Positions 1,711 through 57,634 are shown, numbered from the stretch's first letter. The stretch: DNA of 64,000 nucleotides from Candidatus Nomurabacteria bacterium (GCA_943359485.1 CALRHR010000002.1:24992-88991); one strand, 5' to 3'. Numbers and translations are program-made. The notes: generated by a model not told the origin, from the sequence alone.

Positions 1711-1761
1711 AAAATGTTATTATGCTAATGCCTAGATCCTAAAGCCTAGTGCCTATTAATT

Positions 1762-11464: not shown

Positions 11465-11493
11465 TTGACTTTTTAAAAATATTCGGTTATACT
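11465..11493 (+). promoter_or_regulatory. Sigma70-like promoter for rplY (TTGACT, 17-bp spacer, TATACT); predicted near-leaderless transcript
   Basis: TTGACT at 11465-11470, an exact 17-bp spacer, TATACT at 11488-11493, and the ATG at 11501 only 7 nt after the -10 box. Confidence 0.4.
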
Positions 11494-13914: not shown

Positions 13915-13957
13915 CATAAATTCTTTCTTGGCACAACTTTTTATAAAGCAATCTATC

Positions 13958-14030
13958 TGGCGCTGATGCGAGAGCGTTCTTCTCGGGCCGTCGCCCTGCG
14001 AAAGGCTTTCTAAAAAGTGCGCCTGCGACG
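13958..14030. repeat. GC-rich island in the rpmE-prfA spacer
   Basis: tggcgctgatgcgagagcgttcttctcgggccgtcgccctgcgaaaggctttctaaaaagtgcgcctgcgacg is much more GC-rich than its surroundings. It may be related to the intragenic elements or may be a structured RNA. Confidence 0.35.
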
Positions 14031-14051
14031 AATTTATGTTATTTTAAATAT

Positions 14052-16361: not shown

Positions 16362-16420
16362 AAATTATTTTTGAATTGCGTATATAAACTATTTTTGGTA
16401 TAGTTTTTTTATCGTTTATC

Positions 16421-16489
16421 GTGAGCGTAGTTCAGTTTGCCTCGCCAACCACCGCCTGAGCGGGGCGAGGCGGGGTGAAGTAGAACGCT
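16421..16489 (+). pseudogene. 5' fragment of a tRNA-Ile-like gene (acceptor and D-arm) interrupted by a 44-nt GC-rich hairpin insert
   Basis: gtgagcgtagttcagt and tagaacgct match positions 1-16 and 19-27 of the intact tRNA downstream (15/16 identity). The insert ttgcctcgcc...ggcgaggcggggtgaag contains a perfect 8-bp stem gcctcgcc/ggcgaggc. No anticodon or T arm follows. Confidence 0.4.
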
Positions 16490-16513
16490 ATAGTGATTGT
16501 GTTTATAAGATTT

Positions 16514-16585
16514 GCGAGCGTAGTTCAGTGGTAGAACGCTGTCCTGATAAGACAGAGGTCGAAGGTCCGATTCCTTCCGCTCGCA
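16514..16585 (+). tRNA. tRNA-Ile (anticodon GAU)
   Basis: Cloverleaf folded by hand: acceptor gcgagcg/cgctcgc, D-stem gttc/gaac, anticodon stem ctgtc/gacag with loop ctGATaa, T-arm gaagg-tccgatt-ccttc, discriminator A. No encoded CCA. Confidence 0.8.
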
Positions 16586-24204: not shown

Positions 24205-24286
24205 TAGTTAATTGGGTCCTAGTTCTGGGTTCTAGTCTGTAATTTTTTATGGCTAGTACCTAGTCACTAGTACCTAAAATAAAAAC

Positions 24287-27243: not shown

Positions 27244-27268
27244 AATAAGAAAATGTTAGTATAAATTT

Positions 27269-29616
<2,348 letters not shown>

Positions 29617-29626
29617 TAGGCAACTA

Positions 29627-29682
29627 GGCACTAGGCTCTAGGAAACTAGTTAAAGCCTAACGCCTAAAGCCTAACGCCTATG
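29627..29682 (+). repeat. CTAG-rich intergenic element with a 4x heptamer array (a/c)GCCTAA ending in the atpC start codon
   Basis: ggcactaggctctaggaaactagttaaagcctaa then (c/a)gcctaa repeats ending ..cgcctATG. The 34-bp core is identical to 32725-32758. Confidence 0.7.
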
Positions 29683-30129
29683 AATTCCAAGCAATTAAAA
29701 TTAAAACTAATCACAACAGAGCGTCTCGTCTTAGAAGAGATGGTAGACCAAGTCAGCATACCCACCACTCTTGGCGAGATAACCGTATTGCCGGATCATA
29801 TACCGTTAGTCACTGAGCTTACTTCTGGAGATATGGTAGCATTTCAAGGAAAAGAGCTTGTTCCTTTTGCTGTTGTAGGTGGATTTCTAGAAATAAAAAA
29901 TGGTGAAGATGGTGTGACAGAAGTAGCAATCTTGGCAGATTTTGCTGAACATGTGTCAGAATTGTCTGATGAAAAGATCAAACAGGCAAAAATGCAAGCA
30001 GAAGAACTCAAAAAGCAAAAAGAAAATAATAAGATTGTAGACTTCGAACACTTTGAAGCTGAACTCGAACGCTCACTGACCAGAGTAAAAATCGCGGACA
30101 AGTGGAGGACAAAGAAGTATAGGAGATAG
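29680..30129 (+). CDS. atpC: F0F1 ATP synthase subunit epsilon
   Basis: Beta-sandwich N-domain (LKLITTERLVLEEMVDQVSIPTTLGEITVLPDHIPLVTEL) followed by a helical C-terminus. Confidence 0.85.
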   Translation: MNSKQLKLKLITTERLVLEEMVDQVSIPTTLGEITVLPDHIPLVTELTSGDMVAFQGKELVPFAVVGGFLEIKNGEDGVTEVAILADFAEHVSELSDEKIKQAKMQAEELKKQKENNKIVDFEHFEAELERSLTRVKIADKWRTKKYRR

Positions 30130-30169
30130 AATTTATTTTTTGTTATTATTAATTTAATATATTAAATAT

Positions 30170-30580
30170 ATGGGAAGAGAAGATCTGCTGAAACCAAAAA
30201 AATCTGAAAAAACCCTAGAAAGAAAACCAGAAAGAAAAAAAGTCAGCCAAGAGCAAGCAACTGAGGAAATGATAAGAGAAATTTTTTTAACTTTTTCTGG
30301 GATGGTTTTTGATTTCTTGGAACGTAATCAGCCTGAAGTAGCAATGGTTCTAAAGAATGATTTTGAAAAGTTTACAGTGGTTTTAACTGAAGTAACTGGG
30401 GAAAGTGATTGGTCTCTTGAAGATCTAAGGAAGAGAATTCCAAATAATATGTGGCTTGTCTATTTAGATGGCTATTTATTGAAGCTAAAAACACTAACTG
30501 CTGATGAAATTTCTGAAGAAGATTTAAGAGGATTGAGAGAAGATGTAGAAAAAAGAACTAGCGAGGAAAATAAAAATTAA
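30170..30580 (+). CDS. Hypothetical acidic protein
   Basis: 136-aa ORF, Glu/Lys-rich, with no motif recognised. Confidence 0.35.
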   Translation: MGREDLLKPKKSEKTLERKPERKKVSQEQATEEMIREIFLTFSGMVFDFLERNQPEVAMVLKNDFEKFTVVLTEVTGESDWSLEDLRKRIPNNMWLVYLDGYLLKLKTLTADEISEEDLRGLREDVEKRTSEENKN

Positions 30581-30584
30581 ATAA

Positions 30585-31328
30585 ATGTCTAATTTCTACA
30601 TTGTGGCGACGCCAATAGGAAATATGGGGGACATCACACTCCGGGCAATTGAGACACTTAAAAATGTGGATTTAATTTTATGTGAAGATACCCGCCAGAC
30701 GAAAAAACTTTTAGATAAATATAATATTAATAAACTGACGATGAGCTATCCATCTGATGATGTAGCCGAGAAAAATTCTAGGCAGAGTAATAAATTAGAC
30801 AAAATTTTTGCATTTCTAGAAGAAGGGAAAGATTTAGCCCTAGTGTCAGACGCTGGCACACCGGGTATTTCTGATCCGGGGGCAATGCTCGTGTCAAAAA
30901 TTAAAGAAAGATTCGACCTCTCCCCCAGCCCCTCTCCGAATCTCGGAGAGGGTGGCCGAAGGCCGGGTGAGGTGAATGTGATTCCTATACCCGGCCCCTC
31001 TGCCGTAATCACCGCGCTGTCGGCTTCGGGATTACCAACGCATGAATTCACATTTCTTGGATTTTTGCCACACAAAAAGGGAAGGGAGACATTGTTTAAA
31101 GAAATTGCGCTAGCGAAAAGGACTTTTGCGTTTTACGAATCTCCGCACAGAATTTTAAAAACTTTAGAATCGCTCGTTAAATTCTGTCCAGAGAAAAAAG
31201 TCTGCCTTGCTCGCGAGCTTACGAAAATTTATGAAGAATTCAAAACTGGCTCACCCAGAGAGGTTTTGGAATATCTAGAAAAAAATAAAGAAAAACAAAG
31301 AGGGGAATTCACAGTTATTGTTTCATAG
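30585..31328 (+). CDS. rsmI: 16S rRNA (cytidine1402-2'-O)-methyltransferase
   Basis: YIVATPIGNMGDIT...LALVSDAGTPGISDPG...IPIPGPSAVITALSASGLP...FLGFLP matches RsmI throughout. It carries a ~19-aa in-frame insert (FDLSPSPSPNLGEGGRRPGE). Confidence 0.85.
   Translation: MSNFYIVATPIGNMGDITLRAIETLKNVDLILCEDTRQTKKLLDKYNINKLTMSYPSDDVAEKNSRQSNKLDKIFAFLEEGKDLALVSDAGTPGISDPGAMLVSKIKERFDLSPSPSPNLGEGGRRPGEVNVIPIPGPSAVITALSASGLPTHEFTFLGFLPHKKGRETLFKEIALAKRTFAFYESPHRILKTLESLVKFCPEKKVCLARELTKIYEEFKTGSPREVLEYLEKNKEKQRGEFTVIVS
30915..30977 (+). repeat. GC-rich palindromic mini-element, family A/B, inserted in frame in rsmI
   Basis: gacctctcccccagcccctctccgaatctcggagagggtggccgaaggccgggtgaggtgaat. It shares its 5' and 3' ends (gacctctcccc.a.cccctctcc ... 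ggtgaggtgaat) with 35195-35254 and has stem ctctcc/ggagag. Confidence 0.7.
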
Positions 31329-31333
31329 TATAA

Positions 31334-31657
31334 TTATTTCAACTTATGTTTCAAGCAAGTGATGATAGACCAGTCGAAGCCACCCCGCTCGGCGAGGTAT
31401 TTCATTTTATCCAGCGCCCAGATGCAATCGTCGAGTTCTTCATTACACGCCACATAAAGCTTTTTTGCTTCGCTTGCTAGTTTGTTGTAAGCATATCTAC
31501 CGTTATAAAATGCCTTCGGCATTTTTTCCCAGCCGTTCATTTTGTAGTAACAGTTGACTATTTCATGCACTGGATTTACGGCTTGTTTATGTTTTTTTAA
31601 GTTATCCAAATAGCCTTCAAAGGGATTTTTTAGAGTATCGTTTTCTTTTTGAGTCAT
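31334..31657 (-). CDS. Hypothetical protein (sole minus-strand gene in this neighbourhood)
   Basis: 107-aa ORF with Cys/Trp/Tyr-rich composition and no motif recognised. Confidence 0.35.
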   Translation of the reverse strand: MTQKENDTLKNPFEGYLDNLKKHKQAVNPVHEIVNCYYKMNGWEKMPKAFYNGRYAYNKLASEAKKLYVACNEELDDCIWALDKMKYLAERGGFDWSIITCLKHKLK

Positions 31658-31695
31658 ACTTTGATTTTAGCACAAATATAATATATTATGACCAT

Positions 31696-32709
31696 ATGGG
31701 TATTTTTACTAAAAAGCTAGGAATAGACCTGGGGACAGCCAATACCCTGGTCTTTTTTCCGGGTAAAGGGATTATCTTAAACGAGCCTTCGGTAGTAGCG
31801 GTTTCTGAACGAGACAATAAAATTCTAGCTATAGGTTTCGAAGCCAAGGATATGATAGGCAAAACTCCGGAATCTATAGTAACTTATTTGCCAATGAAAG
31901 ATGGAGTGATTGCGGATTATCGGGTGACAGAAGCGATGCTCCATTATTTTATAAACAAAGTCCTTGGAAGATTTAACTTTTTTAAACCAGATGTAATGAT
32001 TTCTGTGCCGGCGGGAGTAACGAGCACAGAGAGGCGAGCAGTGATAGAGGCGGCGATTCGCGCAGGTGCCAAGAATGCATTCGTTGTGAAAGAGCCAATT
32101 CTTGCAGCTATCGGTGCAGGAATTCCGATTTACGAATCAAAAGGACACATGGTTGTGGATATCGGTGGAGGTACGACAGATGTGGCAGTGATATCACTCG
32201 GAGGAATCGTTGCTTCGACTTCAGTAAAATGCGCCGGTAATAAAATAGATGCTGCAATAGCAGACTATATCAAAAAAACTTTCAACCTAGCCATCGGAGA
32301 CAGAACTGCCGAAGAAGTAAAAATAAAAATCGGCGCAGCAGTGCCACTAGAAGAAGAGCTCAGTGTTACTATAAAAGGAAGGGATTATATCCAAGGTTTA
32401 CCACGTTCAGCCAGAGTCTCGACAAATGAGATAGTAAAAGCTATCGATCCAGAACTTAGGCAAATAATCAAAGCTATCAAGGAAGTTCTACAAGAAACTC
32501 CGCCGGAGCTCGCTTCAGATATTATTGACCAAGGAATTATTATGACTGGTGGGTCATCACTCTTGCGGAATTTTCCTGATTTGGTTTACCGCAAAACCGG
32601 AGTGAAAGCGTCCCTAGCTGAAGATGCCCTATTTTGTGTCGCTAAAGGTACGGGGATAGCCTTAGAACACTTAGATGTCTACAAGAAGACTGTGCTCAGT
32701 AAAAAATAA
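31696..32709 (+). CDS. mreB: Rod-shape-determining actin homolog MreB
   Basis: LGIDLGTANTLVF (phosphate-1), DIGGGTTDVAVISLGG (phosphate-2), and an adenosine motif near the C-terminus. Confidence 0.9.
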   Translation: MGIFTKKLGIDLGTANTLVFFPGKGIILNEPSVVAVSERDNKILAIGFEAKDMIGKTPESIVTYLPMKDGVIADYRVTEAMLHYFINKVLGRFNFFKPDVMISVPAGVTSTERRAVIEAAIRAGAKNAFVVKEPILAAIGAGIPIYESKGHMVVDIGGGTTDVAVISLGGIVASTSVKCAGNKIDAAIADYIKKTFNLAIGDRTAEEVKIKIGAAVPLEEELSVTIKGRDYIQGLPRSARVSTNEIVKAIDPELRQIIKAIKEVLQETPPELASDIIDQGIIMTGGSSLLRNFPDLVYRKTGVKASLAEDALFCVAKGTGIALEHLDVYKKTVLSKK

Positions 32710-32724
32710 TAAATCAGGTCGTTA

Positions 32725-32780
32725 GGCACTAGGCTCTAGGAAACTAGTTAAAGCCTAAAGCCTAAAGCCTAAAGCCTATG
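32725..32780 (+). repeat. CTAG-rich intergenic element with (AGCCTAA)x4 array ending in the start codon of the holB-like gene
   Basis: ggcactaggctctaggaaactagttaaagcctaaagcctaaagcctaaagcctATG. Its core is identical to 29627-29660. Confidence 0.7.
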
Positions 32781-33500
32781 ATTTCAAAACATTTAGATAA
32801 AGATAACCTGCATCACGCCTACCTGATAGAGGGTGCGCGGGAAGAAATTTTACAGGAAGTTTTAGAATTTATTGAAAGCTTAGGAATACAGACTAACGCT
32901 AACCCAGATTTTCTCCATATTTCGTTTGATTCTTTTAAAGTCGATGATGCGCGTGAATTGAAATCTTTAGGAAAAGAAAAAGGTTTTTCTGTTGAAAAAA
33001 ATTCCAAGAAAATATTCATAATTTCTGCCAACAGTTTTCTCCTAGAAGCCCAAAATACTCTCTTAAAGATGTTTGAAGAGCCTATAGAGAACACGCACTT
33101 TTTTGTTATAGTCCCAGACAAGAATGCATTGCTGGACACTTTTGTTTCCAGATTTTATTTGATTTCTCATATATCTAAGATAGGTGAAGGGGTCAAAGAT
33201 GCGGAGAAGTTTATCGCTATGTCGTTGCGTAACAGAATTGATTTTATAAAAGAATTACTGGCTGAACCAGAAGAAGGGGAAGACGAGGGAGAAACTATTA
33301 TTTTGGATTCTACACGCTCAAAAGCTATAAAATTTTTAAATGAGCTTGAATCTATTTTACACCAAAAGTTTGTGTCAAAGACCGTCTTTGACACTAGTTT
33401 ATTTGAACACTTTTTTAAAGTTCGTGAATTCTTGCGTATGCCTGGTAGTTCGACCAAAACTTTAATGGAATCTGTGGCACTCATTATTCCTAATTTTTGA
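32778..33500 (+). CDS. holB: DNA polymerase III delta-prime-like clamp-loader subunit (short)
   Basis: HAYLIEGAREE mirrors the HolB HAYLF.G N-terminal motif. No Walker A (expected for delta prime); 240 aa. Confidence 0.5.
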   Translation: MISKHLDKDNLHHAYLIEGAREEILQEVLEFIESLGIQTNANPDFLHISFDSFKVDDARELKSLGKEKGFSVEKNSKKIFIISANSFLLEAQNTLLKMFEEPIENTHFFVIVPDKNALLDTFVSRFYLISHISKIGEGVKDAEKFIAMSLRNRIDFIKELLAEPEEGEDEGETIILDSTRSKAIKFLNELESILHQKFVSKTVFDTSLFEHFFKVREFLRMPGSSTKTLMESVALIIPNF

Positions 33501-33529
33501 AATTGATATTTTAATGTTATACTAAAACC

Positions 33530-35196: not shown

Positions 35197-35254
35197 CCTC
35201 TCCCCAACCCCTCTCCTTGACAAGGAGAGGGGGAAGAAAGGGGTGAGGTGAATT
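35195..35254 (+). repeat. GC-rich palindromic mini-element, family A/B, filling the rseP-M24 peptidase spacer exactly
   Basis: gacctctccccaacccctctccttgacaaggagagggggaagaaaggggtgaggtgaat. It starts inside the rseP stop codon and ends 3 nt before the next ATG. Confidence 0.7.
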
Positions 35255-35257
35255 AAT

Positions 35258-35997: not shown

Positions 35998-38448
35998 GTG
36001 AACAAAAAACAAAATTTTGCAAAAATGCCTAAAAAAAGTCAAATTAGCGTGGCAATATTGTGTGGCGGACCTTCACTCGAACGGGGAATCTCGTTAAATT
36101 CTGCACGCAGTGTTCTTGACCATCTAGGTAGTCAGGGGGTCGAGATTGTACCCATCTATTTTAATGAAAAAAGAACTCCCTATAAAATTTCAAATGCGCA
36201 ACTTTATTCAAACACCCCGTCTGATTTTGATTTTAAGTTAAAAAAAACTGGCAGAGAACTTTCGCAGTCCGCCCTCGTTAAAATTTTAAAAAGTGTAACA
36301 ATTGTTTTCCCTTGCATGCACGGCACATTTGGCGAGGATGGAGAGATTCAAAGTTTTTTAGAAAAACACGGTATTCCTTTTATTGGTTCAGGATCGCAAG
36401 CATGCAAGACGGCTTTTGATAAATTTAGAGCGAACGAATACATTCGCTCGCTTGGGTTTTATGCTCCGCAATCCATTGTACTCAAGATCACCGACACAGA
36501 AAAAGAGATTAGAAAAAAAGTTTATAGTTTTTGGAAAAACGAAAAGATAAAATGCGCTATAGTCAAGCCAGCTTCCGGGGGTTCAAGTATTGGTGTATTT
36601 TCTACAGGAAACATAGATGATAGTATAGACCGAATAAAAAGCCTATTCAGTAAACGCAGAGATACACGCGTGGTAGTGGAGCGTTTTGCGGAAGGAAAAG
36701 AGTTTACGGTAATTATTTTACAAAACAGACTTAATATGCCGGTGGCTATTTTACCCACTGAACAGGAAATGGATTATAGCAAACATCAATTCTTTGATTT
36801 CCGTAAAAAATACTTACCGACCCGTCAGGTTACCTATCATTGTCCACCTCGATTTCCAAACGAAATAATTGAAAAAATACAGATACAGGCCGAACAGCTT
36901 TTTTCTGTTTTTGGCATGACGGACTTTGCTCGTTTTGACGGATTTCTGATGCCCGATGGGAATATTTGGTTTTCAGATTTTAATCCAATTTCTGGCATGG
37001 AGCAGAACAGTTTTCTTTTTCAACAAGCATCTCGTATCGGCATGACCCATCAAGATATTTTGCGTTTTATAGTAAACAACGCCTGTTTACGCCGGGGTAT
37101 TCCGGTGGTATTAGAAAATTTATTTTTACACGAAAATTTAGACAAGAAAAGAAAACCACTGGCTGTGCTTTTCGGTGGGGAAACAGCGGAAAAGCAAGTC
37201 TCGCTCATGAGTGGCACAAACACCTGGCTTAAATTGCGTGGATCTCAAGTATATAAACCATTTCCATATCTTTTAGCAAAAAAAGATGAAATTTGGGAAC
37301 TTCCGTATTCTTACATTCTCAATCACACAGTTGAAGAAATAATAGAAAATGCAGAAAAAGCCCCAAGGGATATAAAAAGATTATTATTTTTACTTGAAAA
37401 GGTGAAAATGAGATTATTCTTAAAAGAATCTGATGCCACAGAAGACTTTTTTATGCCTAGAAAATACACCTTAAATAAAATCCTAGCAAAGCACCCCTTT
37501 ATATTCTTAGCCTTGCATGGTGGAATTGGTGAAGACGGGACAATACAGCGAATTTTGGAAAAAAATAAGATAAAATACAACGGCTCCGACAGCTCAACTT
37601 CCAAACTCTGTATGGACAAATGGTTAACTAATGAAATAATATCGCAGGCGAATTTAAGTGGAGTAAAAACTGCTCCGCATGTACTTCTGAAGGTAGAAGA
37701 TTTTTCTAAACTTTCTATGAGTAAAACACAAGAGGATTACTGGCAAATGCTTTTAGGAACACTCGGAGGAAAAACAGTTATTGCTAAACCTCGAGGTGAT
37801 GGATGTTCGGCTGGAGTGGTGCGACTTTTTAATAAAAAAGATTTAGCTACATATATTTGGTTTATAAAAAATAAATATTCTGTCGCTAAACCCGGTACTT
37901 TTACTAATCAAAATAATTTAATTCAAATGCCAGAAGGTGAGGTCATGGATATTATTTTTGAATCATTTATTGAAACAGATAAATTAAAAATCCATGGAGA
38001 TAAGATTGTGCACATTAGGAAGAGCGGTTTTCTGGAAATGACTGTGGGTGTAGTAGAAGAAAAAAATTCTGGCAATGGCAAAGGTCGCATAAAAGCATTA
38101 TCTCCCTCCATTACTGTGGCTGAAGATACAATACTGTCTGTTGAAGAAAAGTTTCAAGGAGGTACTGGTGTAAATATTACTCCGCCACCAGCTCACATTA
38201 TCTCGCGAAAAAACCTTAATAAAGTTAAAAAGTCTATTGAACTTGTGGCGGAAAAACTTAGAATTCGTGGTTACGCCAGAATTGATATTTTTACCCAAGT
38301 CAAAACTGGGAATATTATTGTAATTGAAATAAATACTCTACCGGCGCTTACTCCGTCAACCGTTATTTATCATCAGGCGTTAGCAGAAAAAGAACCAATT
38401 TTCCCTAAACAATTTATGGAATTAGTTGTAGAAAACAAAGAATCATAA
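35998..38448 (+). CDS. ddl: Tandem-duplicated D-alanine--D-alanine ligase (two Ddl-like ATP-grasp modules fused)
   Basis: Module 1: ISVAILCGGPSLERGISLNSARSV ... KPASGGSSIGVF. Module 2 (from about residue 390): LAVLFGGETAEKQVSLMSGTN ... KPRGDGCSAGVVRLF. Alanine racemase follows immediately. Confidence 0.65.
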   Translation: MNKKQNFAKMPKKSQISVAILCGGPSLERGISLNSARSVLDHLGSQGVEIVPIYFNEKRTPYKISNAQLYSNTPSDFDFKLKKTGRELSQSALVKILKSVTIVFPCMHGTFGEDGEIQSFLEKHGIPFIGSGSQACKTAFDKFRANEYIRSLGFYAPQSIVLKITDTEKEIRKKVYSFWKNEKIKCAIVKPASGGSSIGVFSTGNIDDSIDRIKSLFSKRRDTRVVVERFAEGKEFTVIILQNRLNMPVAILPTEQEMDYSKHQFFDFRKKYLPTRQVTYHCPPRFPNEIIEKIQIQAEQLFSVFGMTDFARFDGFLMPDGNIWFSDFNPISGMEQNSFLFQQASRIGMTHQDILRFIVNNACLRRGIPVVLENLFLHENLDKKRKPLAVLFGGETAEKQVSLMSGTNTWLKLRGSQVYKPFPYLLAKKDEIWELPYSYILNHTVEEIIENAEKAPRDIKRLLFLLEKVKMRLFLKESDATEDFFMPRKYTLNKILAKHPFIFLALHGGIGEDGTIQRILEKNKIKYNGSDSSTSKLCMDKWLTNEIISQANLSGVKTAPHVLLKVEDFSKLSMSKTQEDYWQMLLGTLGGKTVIAKPRGDGCSAGVVRLFNKKDLATYIWFIKNKYSVAKPGTFTNQNNLIQMPEGEVMDIIFESFIETDKLKIHGDKIVHIRKSGFLEMTVGVVEEKNSGNGKGRIKALSPSITVAEDTILSVEEKFQGGTGVNITPPPAHIISRKNLNKVKKSIELVAEKLRIRGYARIDIFTQVKTGNIIVIEINTLPALTPSTVIYHQALAEKEPIFPKQFMELVVENKES

Positions 38449-43016: not shown

Positions 43017-43111
43017 AATTTTTTAAACATTCCGAACAAGCCAATACAATATACTAAGAAATCAACACAAAATCAACATTCGATTTTTAAAAAGTATGTT
43101 AAGATAAACCT

Positions 43112-47849: not shown

Positions 47850-47958
47850 ATAAATTAGTTTCTAGGTGCTAGTGACCAGTTGCTAGTGAAAATTTTACAA
47901 ACTAGAACCTAATTCACAGTATTACATGAAATAGTTTTTCAATGCAAATTTAGAGAAA

Positions 47959-52066: not shown

Positions 52067-52107
52067 AAGCTATGGCGAGGCAAGATAAAATTTGCTAAGA
52101 TTAAACT

Positions 52108-53721: not shown

Positions 53722-53834
53722 AAAAAGTAGCCGGACGCAGAAATTAACCCTTATTTTCTGACAAAGTGGTTCCAACTTCGCACCAAACAGCAACAGCAAA
53801 TGAATTTTAAGTTTATTTTTGTTATACTATTCTC

Positions 53835-56103: not shown

Positions 56104-57600
56104 ATGTATAGTGAAACCAAGATGAAGAAAAATACCAACTCTAAAAACCTAAAAAACTTAGGGCAAGGATTAACATTTGACGATGTGCTTTTGGTGCCAA
56201 ATCATAGTGAAGTTTTACCGCGCAATGTCATTACAAAAACCCGCCTGACGAAAAATATAGCTCTCCATATTCCTCTGATGTCCGCGGCAATGGACACAGT
56301 GACTGAGGGAGCTATGGCCATAGCCATGGCAGAGCAAGGTGGTATTGGCATCATTCATAAAAATTTATCGATCGAAGATCAGGCTAAGGAAGTCGAACGA
56401 GTAAAGCGTTATGAATCTGGCCGAATATCAAATCCAATTACTCTCACGGTGGGGCAGACGGTGGGAGATGTTTTGAAAATAAAAGCCAAATATCATTTTG
56501 GAGGATTCCCTGTTTTAGATAAGAGTGGTAAGTTGGTGGGCATTATTACGAATCGCGATCTTCGATTTCAAAAAAATAACTCTACTTTGGTAGAGAAAAT
56601 TATGACAATCAAGCTTGTTACCGGCGGACCACACACAACCATTGAAGAAGCCAATGACTTATTTCAAAAATACGGTATTGAAAAACTTCCACTCGTAGAT
56701 AAGATGGGTAAATTAGTCGGGCTGATTACCTATCGTGATACGGAAAAAAGCAAAGAACACCCAAACGCTACCAAGGACAAAGAAGGAAGGCTTTGCGTAG
56801 GGGCGGCAGTAGGCGCGGGCAGTGATGTTCTCTCTCAAGTTGAAGCCCTTGTTAAAGCTGGGATAGACATTATATGTGTAGACACAGCTCATGGACATTC
56901 CAAGGGTGTGATTGAAACAGTAAAAAAAATTCGTAAAGCTTATCCAAAACTCGACATTATTGCTGGAAATATCGCTACCGGCGAAGCCGCGCTCGCGCTT
57001 ATAACTGCTGGAGCGAATGCGGTAAAAGTCGGCATTGGTCCTGGTTCGATTTGTACCACGCGGGTTGTCTCAGGCGTCGGAGTACCACAACTCTCTGCTG
57101 TTTCTTCTGTGTATGAAGTTTGTAAGAAATTAAATATTCCAGTTATTGCTGACGGCGGGATAAAACATAGCGGAGATGTGGTCAAGGCTCTCGCTTTTGG
57201 CGCCGATGTAGTAATGGGTGGCAGTATGTTTGCTGGGACAGATGAATCTCCGGGCGACATAATTACACTAAACGACCAAAAATTTAAAAAATATCGAGGC
57301 ATGGGTAGTCTCGGCGCGATGCAGAGAGGTTCCAAGGATCGTTATTTTCAAGAAGATCAGTATGATCTGACCAAGCTCGTACCCGAAGGTGTTTCTGGGC
57401 ATGTGTCTTATAAAGGCCCAGTATCTGGTATAATTCATCAATACATTGGTGGACTTCGCGCAGGCATGGGCTATCTGGGAGCCGAAAACATTCAAACTAT
57501 GCGCAACGCTTCTTTTTATACTATTACTTCGGCTGGCCTATCAGAAAGTCATATACATGATGTTTTTATGGTAAAGTCTGCGCCAAATTACAAGAAATAG
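56104..57600 (+). CDS. guaB: IMP dehydrogenase
   Basis: [14 protein letters not shown], a CBS pair, the catalytic [11 protein letters not shown] loop, and GGIKHSGD. Confidence 0.92.
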
Positions 57601-57634
57601 GTTTTAGTTGCTAGCTTCTAGGTTCTAGAAAAAA

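Follow-up and report, generated by a model that had tools for sequence, protein, structure and literature searches.

The TAACTGA direct repeats of marine Beggiatoaceae, which also occur in some cyanobacteria and Bacteroidetes, have an unknown function, are suspected of horizontal spread and are predicted to be unstructured (MacGregor 2015, PMC4679880). Here, we describe a heptamer repeat element found in a 64,000-nt stretch of DNA from an uncultured Candidatus Nomurabacteria bacterium (GCA_943359485.1 CALRHR010000002.1:24992-88991; this whole stretch is called the window, and positions are counted from its first letter). The window belongs to an ENA metagenome contig of 102 kb, 84 kb of which was surveyed for elements and genes. 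Members of this repeat family are built of two tandem heptamer arrays in inverted order, with CTAG / CCTA(A/G) as their core: a 5′ arm that can be written as (CTAGGCN)n or (CTAGGTN)n, a short loop, and then a 3′ arm of the form (NGCCTAA)n or (NACCTAG)n. Judged by analogy, the start-proximal TAACTGA repeats of Beggiatoaceae are the closest described counterpart. Both kinds consist of tandem, stop-containing 7-nt units (in 2-6 or more copies for TAACTGA), both point forward toward the downstream gene with the largest class ending ~1 nt before the start, and both occupy spacers without a ribosome-binding site (RBS) before essential genes, including ribosomal protein genes. Unlike the TAACTGA repeats, the Nomurabacteria units read CTAGGCN / NGCCTAA, the host phylum belongs to the candidate phyla radiation (CPR), and the arrays face each other, fold (z ~ −4.5) and fill operon-internal stop-start junctions; the two thus share unit length, stops and placement, and differ in unit sequence and structure.

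Other repeat families offer partial parallels. Miniature inverted-repeat transposable elements (MITEs; e.g. Neisseria Correia/NEMIS, ERIC and RUP) are likewise short, dispersed, non-coding inverted repeats near genes, co-transcribed with them as mRNA hairpins, and present or absent at orthologous sites of related genomes (PMC3184786). The Nomurabacteria element shares their fold-back terminal inverted repeats. Unlike MITEs, it has arms of tandem heptamers (2-8) in place of fixed terminal inverted repeats, it is not uniform in length, it is limited to co-directional junctions in one orientation and no parent insertion sequence (IS) is known for it, with no related IS or transposase among the genes annotated on the 84 kb. 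REP/BIME elements and REPINs with their RAYT transposases (PMC3337134) are multicopy extragenic imperfect palindromes, often located between cistrons, as is the element described here, and REP elements can stabilise upstream mRNA, as at malE-malF (PMC5927463). Unlike these, the Nomurabacteria element starts with (T)TAGG, has no GTAG head and forms ladder helices of ~45% G+C, its arms not being G+C-rich; REPs are common at operon ends, where Nomurabacteria elements are absent, and no RAYT gene is among the genes annotated on the 84 kb. Neisseria REP2 and Borrelia inverted-repeat sequences (PMC3184786) also lie directly 5′ of genes and run into the ATG. REP2 carries a promoter and an RBS, whereas the Nomurabacteria element carries neither.

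Foldback architecture, structure-gated starts and 7-nt spacing are each known from elsewhere. Drosophila FB foldback transposons have inverted arms of short tandem subrepeats, the number of which varies between copies; they measure kilobases and live in a eukaryotic host, whereas the Nomurabacteria element measures ~60 nt, and no homology is implied. At E. coli atpHA and at the phage MS2 coat-replicase junction, a fold hides the downstream start and is opened by ribosomes finishing the upstream cistron. These folds are unique local sequences with a Shine-Dalgarno (SD) motif, whereas the Nomurabacteria fold is a portable repeat without one, for which coupling is only proposed; atpHA is one classical case of structure-gated coupling within an atp operon, where copies of the Nomurabacteria element are also found. 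The HutP site of the Bacillus hut operon, (UAG-N4)x3, presents UAG each 7 nt, and omega-repressor operators are heptads in direct and inverted order. The 5′ arm of the Nomurabacteria element has the same UAG-N4 spacing, but its 3′ arm carries UAA and there is no terminator; HutP and omega sites lie at a terminator or promoter and the element at an operon junction, and no HutP or omega homologue is among the annotated genes on the 84 kb. Within the limits of the literature searched, no prior description of the element was found in work on CPR, Parcubacteria or Nomurabacteria.

Two long copies and the CTAG content of spacers

A sequence-only reading of the window had pointed to a 34-bp core, identical at two sites, that runs through four tandem heptamers into gcctATG. 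This is borne out: the 34-mer GGCACTAGGCTCTAGGAAACTAGTTAAAGCCTAA has exactly two exact matches (29627-29660 and 32725-32758, plus strand) and none in shuffled sequence, and Tandem Repeats Finder returns a period-7 array of 4.3 copies at either place. The array of copy A, between atpD and atpC (29651-29680), has 86% matches with alternating A/C units, rising to 100% when scored at period 14, while that of copy B, between mreB and a holB-like gene (32749-32778), has 100% matches at period 7. Both arrays are closed by gcctATG, at the starts of atpC (29680) and the holB-like gene (32778), and a GGAG-type SD precedes neither gene, in agreement with the sequence-only reading. Support also comes from an independent short-read assembly of the same organism from another run (Logan ERR5863119), where a 3.1-kb contig (L002) starts within copy A and stops within copy B, its break points falling at the 34-mer copies (L002 1-50 and 3090-3122), which is the break expected of an assembler at a real repeat. 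Copies A and B are a genuine, statistically solid feature.

The tetramer CTAG had also been described as concentrated in spacers, and an observed/expected count confirms an excess over composition. Genes contain 112 CTAGs in 60.9 kb (1.84/kb) and spacers 24 in 3.5 kb (6.8/kb), a 3.7-fold higher density; 10.9 (mononucleotide) or 12.6 (Markov) would be expected in the spacers (binomial p 1e-7 against the genic rate; Poisson p 0.003 against the Markov expectation). GCCT, CCTA and CTAG are the top three spacer-enriched tetramers, and the distance from one CTA(A/G) to the next is exactly 7 nt in 17/26 cases in spacers compared with 3/40 in genes. As the sequence-only reading had indicated, CTAG clusters occur in further spacers; with those of copies A and B, six spacers take up 21 of the 24 spacer CTAGs (Table 1). 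Seven elements were found in the 84 kb. Six lie within the window, at the MYG1-like/obg, atpE/atpF, atpD/atpC, mreB/holB, dprA/topA (minus strand) and guaB/purA junctions, and the seventh lies beyond it, where a PBP (ftsI-like) gene is followed by a mur ligase gene on the same contig. Together with the 36 metagenome contigs that carry the same core (see below), they make clear that the long copies are not the sole instances, and the recurrence claimed earlier is real.

A predicted ladder hairpin from stop to start

Folding suggests that what had looked like a 'core' followed by a 'heptamer array' is a single imperfect hairpin, each making up one half of it, and that the 34-bp unit is not a core of its own but the 5′ arm of this hairpin, its loop and the first unit of the 3′ arm. 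The (CTAGGCN)n units of the 5′ arm pair with the (NGCCTAA)n units of the 3′ arm (UAGGC with GCCUA), resulting in a predicted ladder of 4-6 bp helices with a 2x2 internal loop each 7 nt. RNAfold gives a minimum free energy (MFE) of −26.2 kcal/mol (z −4.15) for copy A, −26.9 kcal/mol (z −4.52) for copy B and −29.9 kcal/mol (z −4.64) for the element between atpE and atpF, and in no case did a shuffled sequence fold as well (0/200 each). At the base of the copy A helix, A29616 (the last base of the atpD stop) is paired with U29681 of the atpC AUG, and U29617 with A29680 of the same AUG, which places the atpD stop and the atpC start adjacent to each other across the helix.

At the level of the family, two subfamilies can be told apart, i.e. 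a GC-type (TAGGC/GCCTA) and a GT/AC-type (TAGGT/ACCTA); the loop of the GC-type, GGAAACTAG(C/T)TAAAG, is conserved across species and junctions. The arms covary, with 51 concordant elements versus 1 discordant and a Spearman coefficient of 0.73 (94 arrays), and the element termini read TTAGG...CCTAA on complementary arms. A stop and a start could be identified for 68 elements; their spacers have a median length of 64 nt and their folds a median dG of −25.8 kcal/mol. In 64 of these 68, the helix begins no more than 8 nt from the stop codon, and in 26 its closing pair reaches or takes in the ATG; many other helices stop 3-16 nt short of the ATG.

Several familiar identities were set aside. An intrinsic terminator is rejected, as the hairpin runs into an AUG or an A-rich stretch and has no U-run, and a promoter inside the element is rejected for lack of a TAnnnT box at −12 to −7 and of an extended −10 box. 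A translational bypass of the T4 gene 60 type at copy A (take-off CUA-UAA) is likewise rejected, as the landing CUA of GCCUAUGA meets UGA at once, and so is a TIGR/CRISPR-like array, the 7-nt units having no spacers. An Rfam 15 scan of the window returned only 4 tRNAs at gathering score, and only chance-level matches (E > 1) on the elements.

Distribution, orientation and position in relatives

For comparison, we used the 80 closest AtpC loci in GTDB genomes, all of which belong to Candidatus Nomurabacteria / Paceibacterota (CPR), and surveyed 906 spacers of 10-400 nt from the window and these loci. Three or more CTAGs were found in 35/708 co-directional junctions versus 2/196 divergent or convergent spacers, and both exceptions are missed calls of small atpE/atpF genes. 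The elements are restricted to gaps between co-directional genes within operons. A DNA-uptake sequence is unlikely, the motif being nearly confined to co-directional spacers and not spread over genes and operon ends.

A metagenome scan with a 23-nt core, CTAGGAAACTAGNTAAAGCCTAA, retrieved 36 contigs. All 36 core-bearing copies are oriented to the downstream gene, and most end in agcctATG. At least 11 kinds of junction are represented, namely those before atpC, holB, nusA, folD, an ftsQ-like gene, atpF, murE/F (mur ligase), rpmI (after infC), ssb (after rpsF), rpsR (after ssb) and pyrG. The number of 3′ arm units ranges from 2 to 8 between species and stays constant in each of six groups of same-sequence contigs drawn from different assemblies. 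This weakens the earlier suggestion of slipped-strand variation, and a phase-variable contingency locus is not supported, as unit numbers are identical among contigs of the same population. The 23-nt core is absent from 2.9 million viral contigs, and a phage origin is rejected on this ground.

In 30/94 arrays, the A of the terminal CCTA is also that of the ATG, and most others end ≤20 nt away. A few arrays are placed otherwise, before a tRNA or a leaderless promoter. CTAG heptamer arrays lie ~10-15 nt 5′ of a tRNA gene in two relatives (L046 3654-3678 and L072 3290-3314), and it follows that not all copies precede a protein start.

Empty sites, turnover and conservation

At the orthologous atpD/atpC and mreB/holB junctions, most relatives are empty: their genes overlap as TAATG or ATGA, or lie ≤10 nt apart. 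Filled and empty junctions have the same ATG. This means that the repeat lies against the start codon, with one base in common (the A of the last unit), and does not supply the start, contrary to what the sequence-only reading had proposed: the empty junctions already have their ATG, overlapping or abutting the upstream stop. At several filled sites, the first TAG of the element is the current end of the upstream gene.

Occupancy is patchy. On a neighbour-joining tree of AtpD+AtpC, carriers of the GC-type at atpD/atpC are scattered over at least five separate positions, with sisters that are empty or differently filled. CTAG hairpins occupy the orthologous atpE to atpF junction in ~17 relatives. 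Arm identity between species, outside the ascertained core, is 77%, and that of AtpC four-fold sites is 30% (synonymous sites being saturated). On this comparison of sequences, high turnover together with strong conservation of sequence is what a copy-and-spread repeat family would show, unlike a uniquely evolved regulatory site; a conserved functional element that is often lost may also produce it. Among the three roles that had been suggested for the element (regulator binding site, translation-initiation enhancer and small mobile repeat), the small mobile repeat fits best, given at least 11 junction types, a patchy distribution over the host tree and arms that are 77% identical. Overall, the earlier interpretation is partly supported.

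Other inserts occur in relatives at the same junctions, i.e. G+C-rich palindromes with a GGTGAGGTGA SD and a ~100-nt structured element. A structured repeat of ~100-130 nt with the core aagcaatctatctggc...gcgaactgctcg and no Rfam match is present in both orientations at several operon junctions of relatives (L015, L030, L033, L038, L082 and others just 5′ of atpC; L008, L011 and L078 5′ of holB); a related sequence lies in the window spacer 13915-14051. A second ladder-hairpin family has the same architecture as the CTAG element, but its 5′ arm is made of (T)AGAAAGT/AAAGTNN units, and its 3′ arm reads (AACTTTAT)n and closes with aactttATG. These ACTTTATA/AAAGT units were found in L031, L032 and L067 (atpD/atpC), in L065, L067 and L074 (mreB/holB) and in L087 (before obg). 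At holB itself, the first codons (ATGAACCTA or ATGAACTTA) prolong the repeat unit as AACCTAT|GAACCTA in L003, L016, L057, L015, L024 and L058, and L003 carries a tandem duplication spanning the holB start (~16382-16440, aacctATGaacctagaacctATGAACCTA) that results in an in-frame upstream ATG.

Translation setting

The sequence-only reading had called this genome SD-poor, and indeed an SD was found at ~3-5/74 annotated starts on the contig. By comparison, an extended −10 box (TGnTAnnnT; its TG lies at −15 relative to the ATG, and the hexamer ends 7 nt 5′ of the ATG) precedes at least 14/74 genes (e.g. 2791-2799, 11480-11488, 27254-27262, 33515-33523, 43097-43105, 52093-52101 and 53820-53828), including the operon-internal genes atpG, frr and purE. 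As a sequence signature, a box 7 nt before the ATG implies leaderless transcripts, with leaderless mRNAs as the probable main mode of initiation. Many of the remaining genes overlap or abut the preceding stop codon. Element junctions lack both promoter and SD, and the genes downstream (ATP synthase subunits, pol III delta′, topA and ribosomal proteins) are presumably essential, so the element must permit their translation. About half of Parcubacteria 16S rRNAs are reported to miss the anti-SD motif (PMC9297842); no rRNA genes are present in the window or in the 121 loci.

Explaining the element

We favour the explanation that the element is a dispersed foldback repeat, mobile or turnover-prone and co-transcribed, that masks and bridges the stop-start junction in such a way that downstream translation needs upstream ribosomes. 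Taken whole, this explanation could about equally prove right or wrong, the 'dispersed foldback repeat in operon junctions' part being much firmer than the coupling part. The sequence, predicted fold, position, orientation, distribution and conservation of the element are directly supported. As to its origin, we infer that the family would have spread and turned over as a non-autonomous mobile element (foldback or MITE/REP-like), and would have been retained only where harmless, i.e. in tight stop-start junctions. Such junctions would tolerate it because stops every 7 nt cover all three frames, letting the upstream protein end correctly, and because the downstream ATG stays intact. Within its transcription unit, the element occupies the entire stop-to-start gap, and the ladder hairpin in the mRNA would set the stop beside the start at its base and bury the start codon. 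Since the downstream genes are presumably essential and have no promoter or SD, they would be translated by ribosomes from the upstream cistron. A terminating ribosome would cover and melt the first ~10 nt of the 5′ arm, thereby releasing the A-rich 3′ arm and the adjacent AUG for reinitiation, and free ribosomes would be largely kept out, such that the fold gates and juxtaposes reinitiation. A more far-reaching version, which we consider speculative and rather unlikely, sees the ladder hairpin as a portable, SD-independent 'stop-start bridge', a mobile cassette that holds the AUG against the terminating ribosome. This bridge would make reinitiation after termination possible, or else the processing of a leaderless message, for a lineage largely without SD-led initiation, and its 7-nt unit would guarantee stops in every frame, so that the cassette could land in any tight junction.

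A number of observations weigh against this explanation. Three window copies are weakly or not folded in RNAfold (those at 1711, z −0.39; at 57601, z +0.16; and at 47850, z −1.55); on these models they are single-arm copies without a significant fold, and the hairpin cannot explain everything. The antisense strand folds as well as the sense strand (mean −23.2 versus −23.6 kcal/mol, p = 0.64). Arm mismatches of the GC-type, read on the sense strand, are A.C in 76 cases versus G.U in 9, while those of the GT/AC-type lean to G.U (18:8); with opposite mismatch spectra in the two subfamilies, the sequences do not appear to carry a clean signature of RNA-level selection. The uniform orientation may come from selection for a weaker fold and an A-rich arm before the start, or from strand-specific insertion. 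On the side of mobility, absence from convergent spacers is unexpected of a purely selfish insert. Comparing filled and empty junctions across species, the insert sits directly 5′ of the ATG and no unambiguous target-site duplication (such as TA) is readable; no transposase is among the annotated genes on the 84 kb and no parent element was found, and the arm length is variable (2-8 units), unlike that of classical MITEs. Given how strict the CTAG core is, and that the loop is conserved, a putative sequence-specific factor may recognise the element. Finally, many copies are orthologous and their counts not independent, and the 23-nt search core biases the estimate of arm conservation.

The same material can be read as a selected cis-regulatory intercistronic mRNA hairpin that is not selfish and sets the expression ratio of neighbouring cistrons, blocking 3′-5′ decay of the upstream message and damping downstream initiation, and would thus favour c-subunit over b, beta over epsilon and MreB over pol III delta′. 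At atpE/atpF, atpD/atpC and mreB/holB, it is the upstream partner that is more abundant or of higher stoichiometry, as far as the general stoichiometry of F1Fo goes; nearly all relatives have a hairpin at atpE/atpF (of the CTAG ladder, GC-rich or AT-rich type), the element is conserved far beyond neutral sites, and protective intercistronic hairpins are documented in operons of E. coli and Rhodobacter (PMC5927463). On the other hand, no elements are found at operon ends or in convergent spacers, although a 3′ stabiliser would be of as much use there, the atpD/atpC and mreB/holB junctions are empty and tightly coupled in most relatives, one sequence serves at least 11 unrelated junctions, and the invariant CTAG core and the single-arm arrays are left unexplained. 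We regard a selected regulatory hairpin as an unlikely account. The geometry of the fold would also suit punctuation, in which a structure-specific endonuclease cuts at the hairpin base and frees an mRNA that starts at or near the AUG and is read as a leaderless message. Human mitochondrial tRNA punctuation and the RNase III sites between phage T7 early genes are analogous, leaderless-type promoters, whose extended −10 box stops 7 nt short of the ATG, dominate, and the commonest geometry puts the last helix pair at the ATG; but there is no candidate nuclease, the helix ends 3-16 nt short of the ATG in many copies, and single-arm copies offer no helix to cut. We consider punctuation improbable.

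Sequence, as opposed to structure, is at the centre of the remaining two accounts. The heptamer arrays may be putative sites of a sequence-specific protein that ties several essential operons into one regulon, either an RNA-binding oligomer on UAG/UAA each 7 nt (HutP-like) or a ribbon-helix-helix DNA-binding protein (omega-like). The invariant CTA(G/A) core, the strict 7-nt spacing that extends to single-arm arrays and equals that of the HutP site (as UAG-N4), the conserved loop and a sequence conservation well beyond neutral all speak for it, and protein binding was also suggested by MacGregor for the TAACTGA repeats (PMC4679880). No candidate protein was found, and no HutP, TRAP or CsrA Pfam family is among the genes annotated on the 84 kb. 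Differently sequenced ladder repeats (ACTTTATA type) fill the same junctions in other species, which favours architecture over sequence, and an operator role is disfavoured by the absence of elements from promoter-bearing divergent spacers; we judge protein sites to be quite improbable. Least probable of all, in our estimate, is that the A-rich 3′ arm, (AGCCUAA)n, is a direct initiation enhancer that replaces the SD by contacting a non-canonical 16S rRNA tail or S1. The element does abut the start codon in constant orientation, SD sites are rare and the anti-SD is missing in many Parcubacteria (PMC9297842). Yet the GC-rich elements of the same genomes provide a canonical GGTGAGGTGA 5-8 nt before the ATG, implying a normal anti-SD, the arm is sequestered in the predicted hairpin, and only ~7/74 genes would use it.

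Coordinates and further features of the contig

Table 1. Coordinates of the heptamer elements, their parts and the adjoining genes in the window
Feature	Position	Strand	Details
CTAG-bearing spacers	1711-1761, 24205-24286, 29617-29679, 32710-32777, 47850-47958, 57601-57634		six spacers
Copy A, 5′ arm	29616-29642	+	units TAGGCAA/CTAGGCA/CTAGGCT/CTAGG; starts on last base of atpD stop (29614-29616)
Copy A, loop	29643-29655	+	AAACUAGUUAAAG; RNAfold
Copy A, 3′ arm	29656-29681	+	(A/C)GCCTAA x4 ending GCCU-AUG; repeat finder, fold
Copy B (mreB to holB-like), whole	32711-32784	+	
Copy B, 5′ arm	32711-32740	+	
Copy B, loop	32741-32753	+	
Copy B, 3′ arm	32754-32784	+	(AGCCTAA)x4 into ATG 32778-32780
GT/AC-type ladder hairpin, atpE to atpF spacer	24212-24277	+	predicted fold; atpF ATG 24287
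atpE/atpF element, 5′ arm	24212-24242	+	G/T-rich CTAG/CTGG units
atpE/atpF element, 3′ arm	24247-24277	+	CTAGTAC CTAGTCA CTAGTAC CTAA
Single-arm 5-unit array before obg	1725-1756	+	CTAATGC CTAGATC CTAAAGC CTAGTGC CTAT; stops 5 nt before obg ATG (1762)
Weaker dprA/topA element	47855-47915	-	both genes minus; sense UUAGGUUCUAG...CACUAGCAACUGGUCACUAGCACCUAGAAACUAA; stops 6 nt before topA AUG (47849)
Single-arm 4-unit array, guaB (IMPDH) to purA	57597-57628	+	TAGTTGC TAGCTTC TAGGTTC TAG; stops 6 nt before ATG 57635
atpD, ATP synthase beta	28252-29616	+	upstream cistron of copy A; Pfam ATP-synt_ab
atpC, ATP synthase epsilon	29680-30129	+	downstream cistron of copy A; PF02823
mreB	31696-32709	+	upstream cistron of copy B; PF06723
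holB-like, DNA pol III delta′	32778-33500	+	downstream cistron of copy B; PF13177

Some further features of the window deserve a short description. Between atpA and atpG, inside the ATP synthase operon, lies a HicB/HicA toxin-antitoxin pair (PF15919, PF07927; 26772-27243) with its own leaderless-type promoter. A G+C-rich palindrome (cctc.cc...ggtgaggtga; 35197-35257) fills the spacer before an M24 peptidase gene and provides its SD, and a second copy (30915-30980) lies in-frame within the TP_methylase (rsmI-like) gene, where it encodes ...SPSPSPNLGEGGRRPGEVNV...; 14-15 residues are missing there in L056 and L060, and other relatives use a different frame (LSLSRRGVGGEV). By its sequence, this insert resembles an RPE-like insertion into a protein. 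At 16430-16513, a duplicate of the first ~26 nt of a tRNA (gagcgtagttcagt...gtagaacgct), interrupted by a ~43 nt G+C-rich palindrome (ttgcctcgcc...ggcgaggcggggtgaa), lies 5′ of the intact tRNA (16514-16585). Lastly, an open reading frame of 816 aa (35998-38448) contains two complete tandem D-Ala-D-Ala ligase modules (Dala_Dala_lig_N/C twice) and is followed by alanine racemase.

Implications

A large part of bacterial diversity belongs to the CPR, whose mode of translation start is poorly known. A repeat that sits at the stop/start of essential operons (ATP synthase, ribosomal proteins, pol III and topA) must suit or aid internal cistron expression, and this compatibility makes the element a sequence-defined handle on SD-independent reinitiation. 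In practical terms, the repeat fragments assemblies of metagenome-assembled genomes, confuses start-codon calling and marks Nomurabacteria contigs. Start-proximal heptamer repeats and foldback miniature repeats are known kinds; new here is an inverted, folding pair of arrays in CPR operon junctions. If it is only a tolerated selfish element, it would be among the few repeat families characterised in streamlined genomes and would show which junctions tolerate insertions. If the bridge is true, it would amount to a new, transferable mechanism of translational coupling, and it could account in the same way for the start-proximal heptamer repeats of other SD-poor bacteria, TAACTGA among them.

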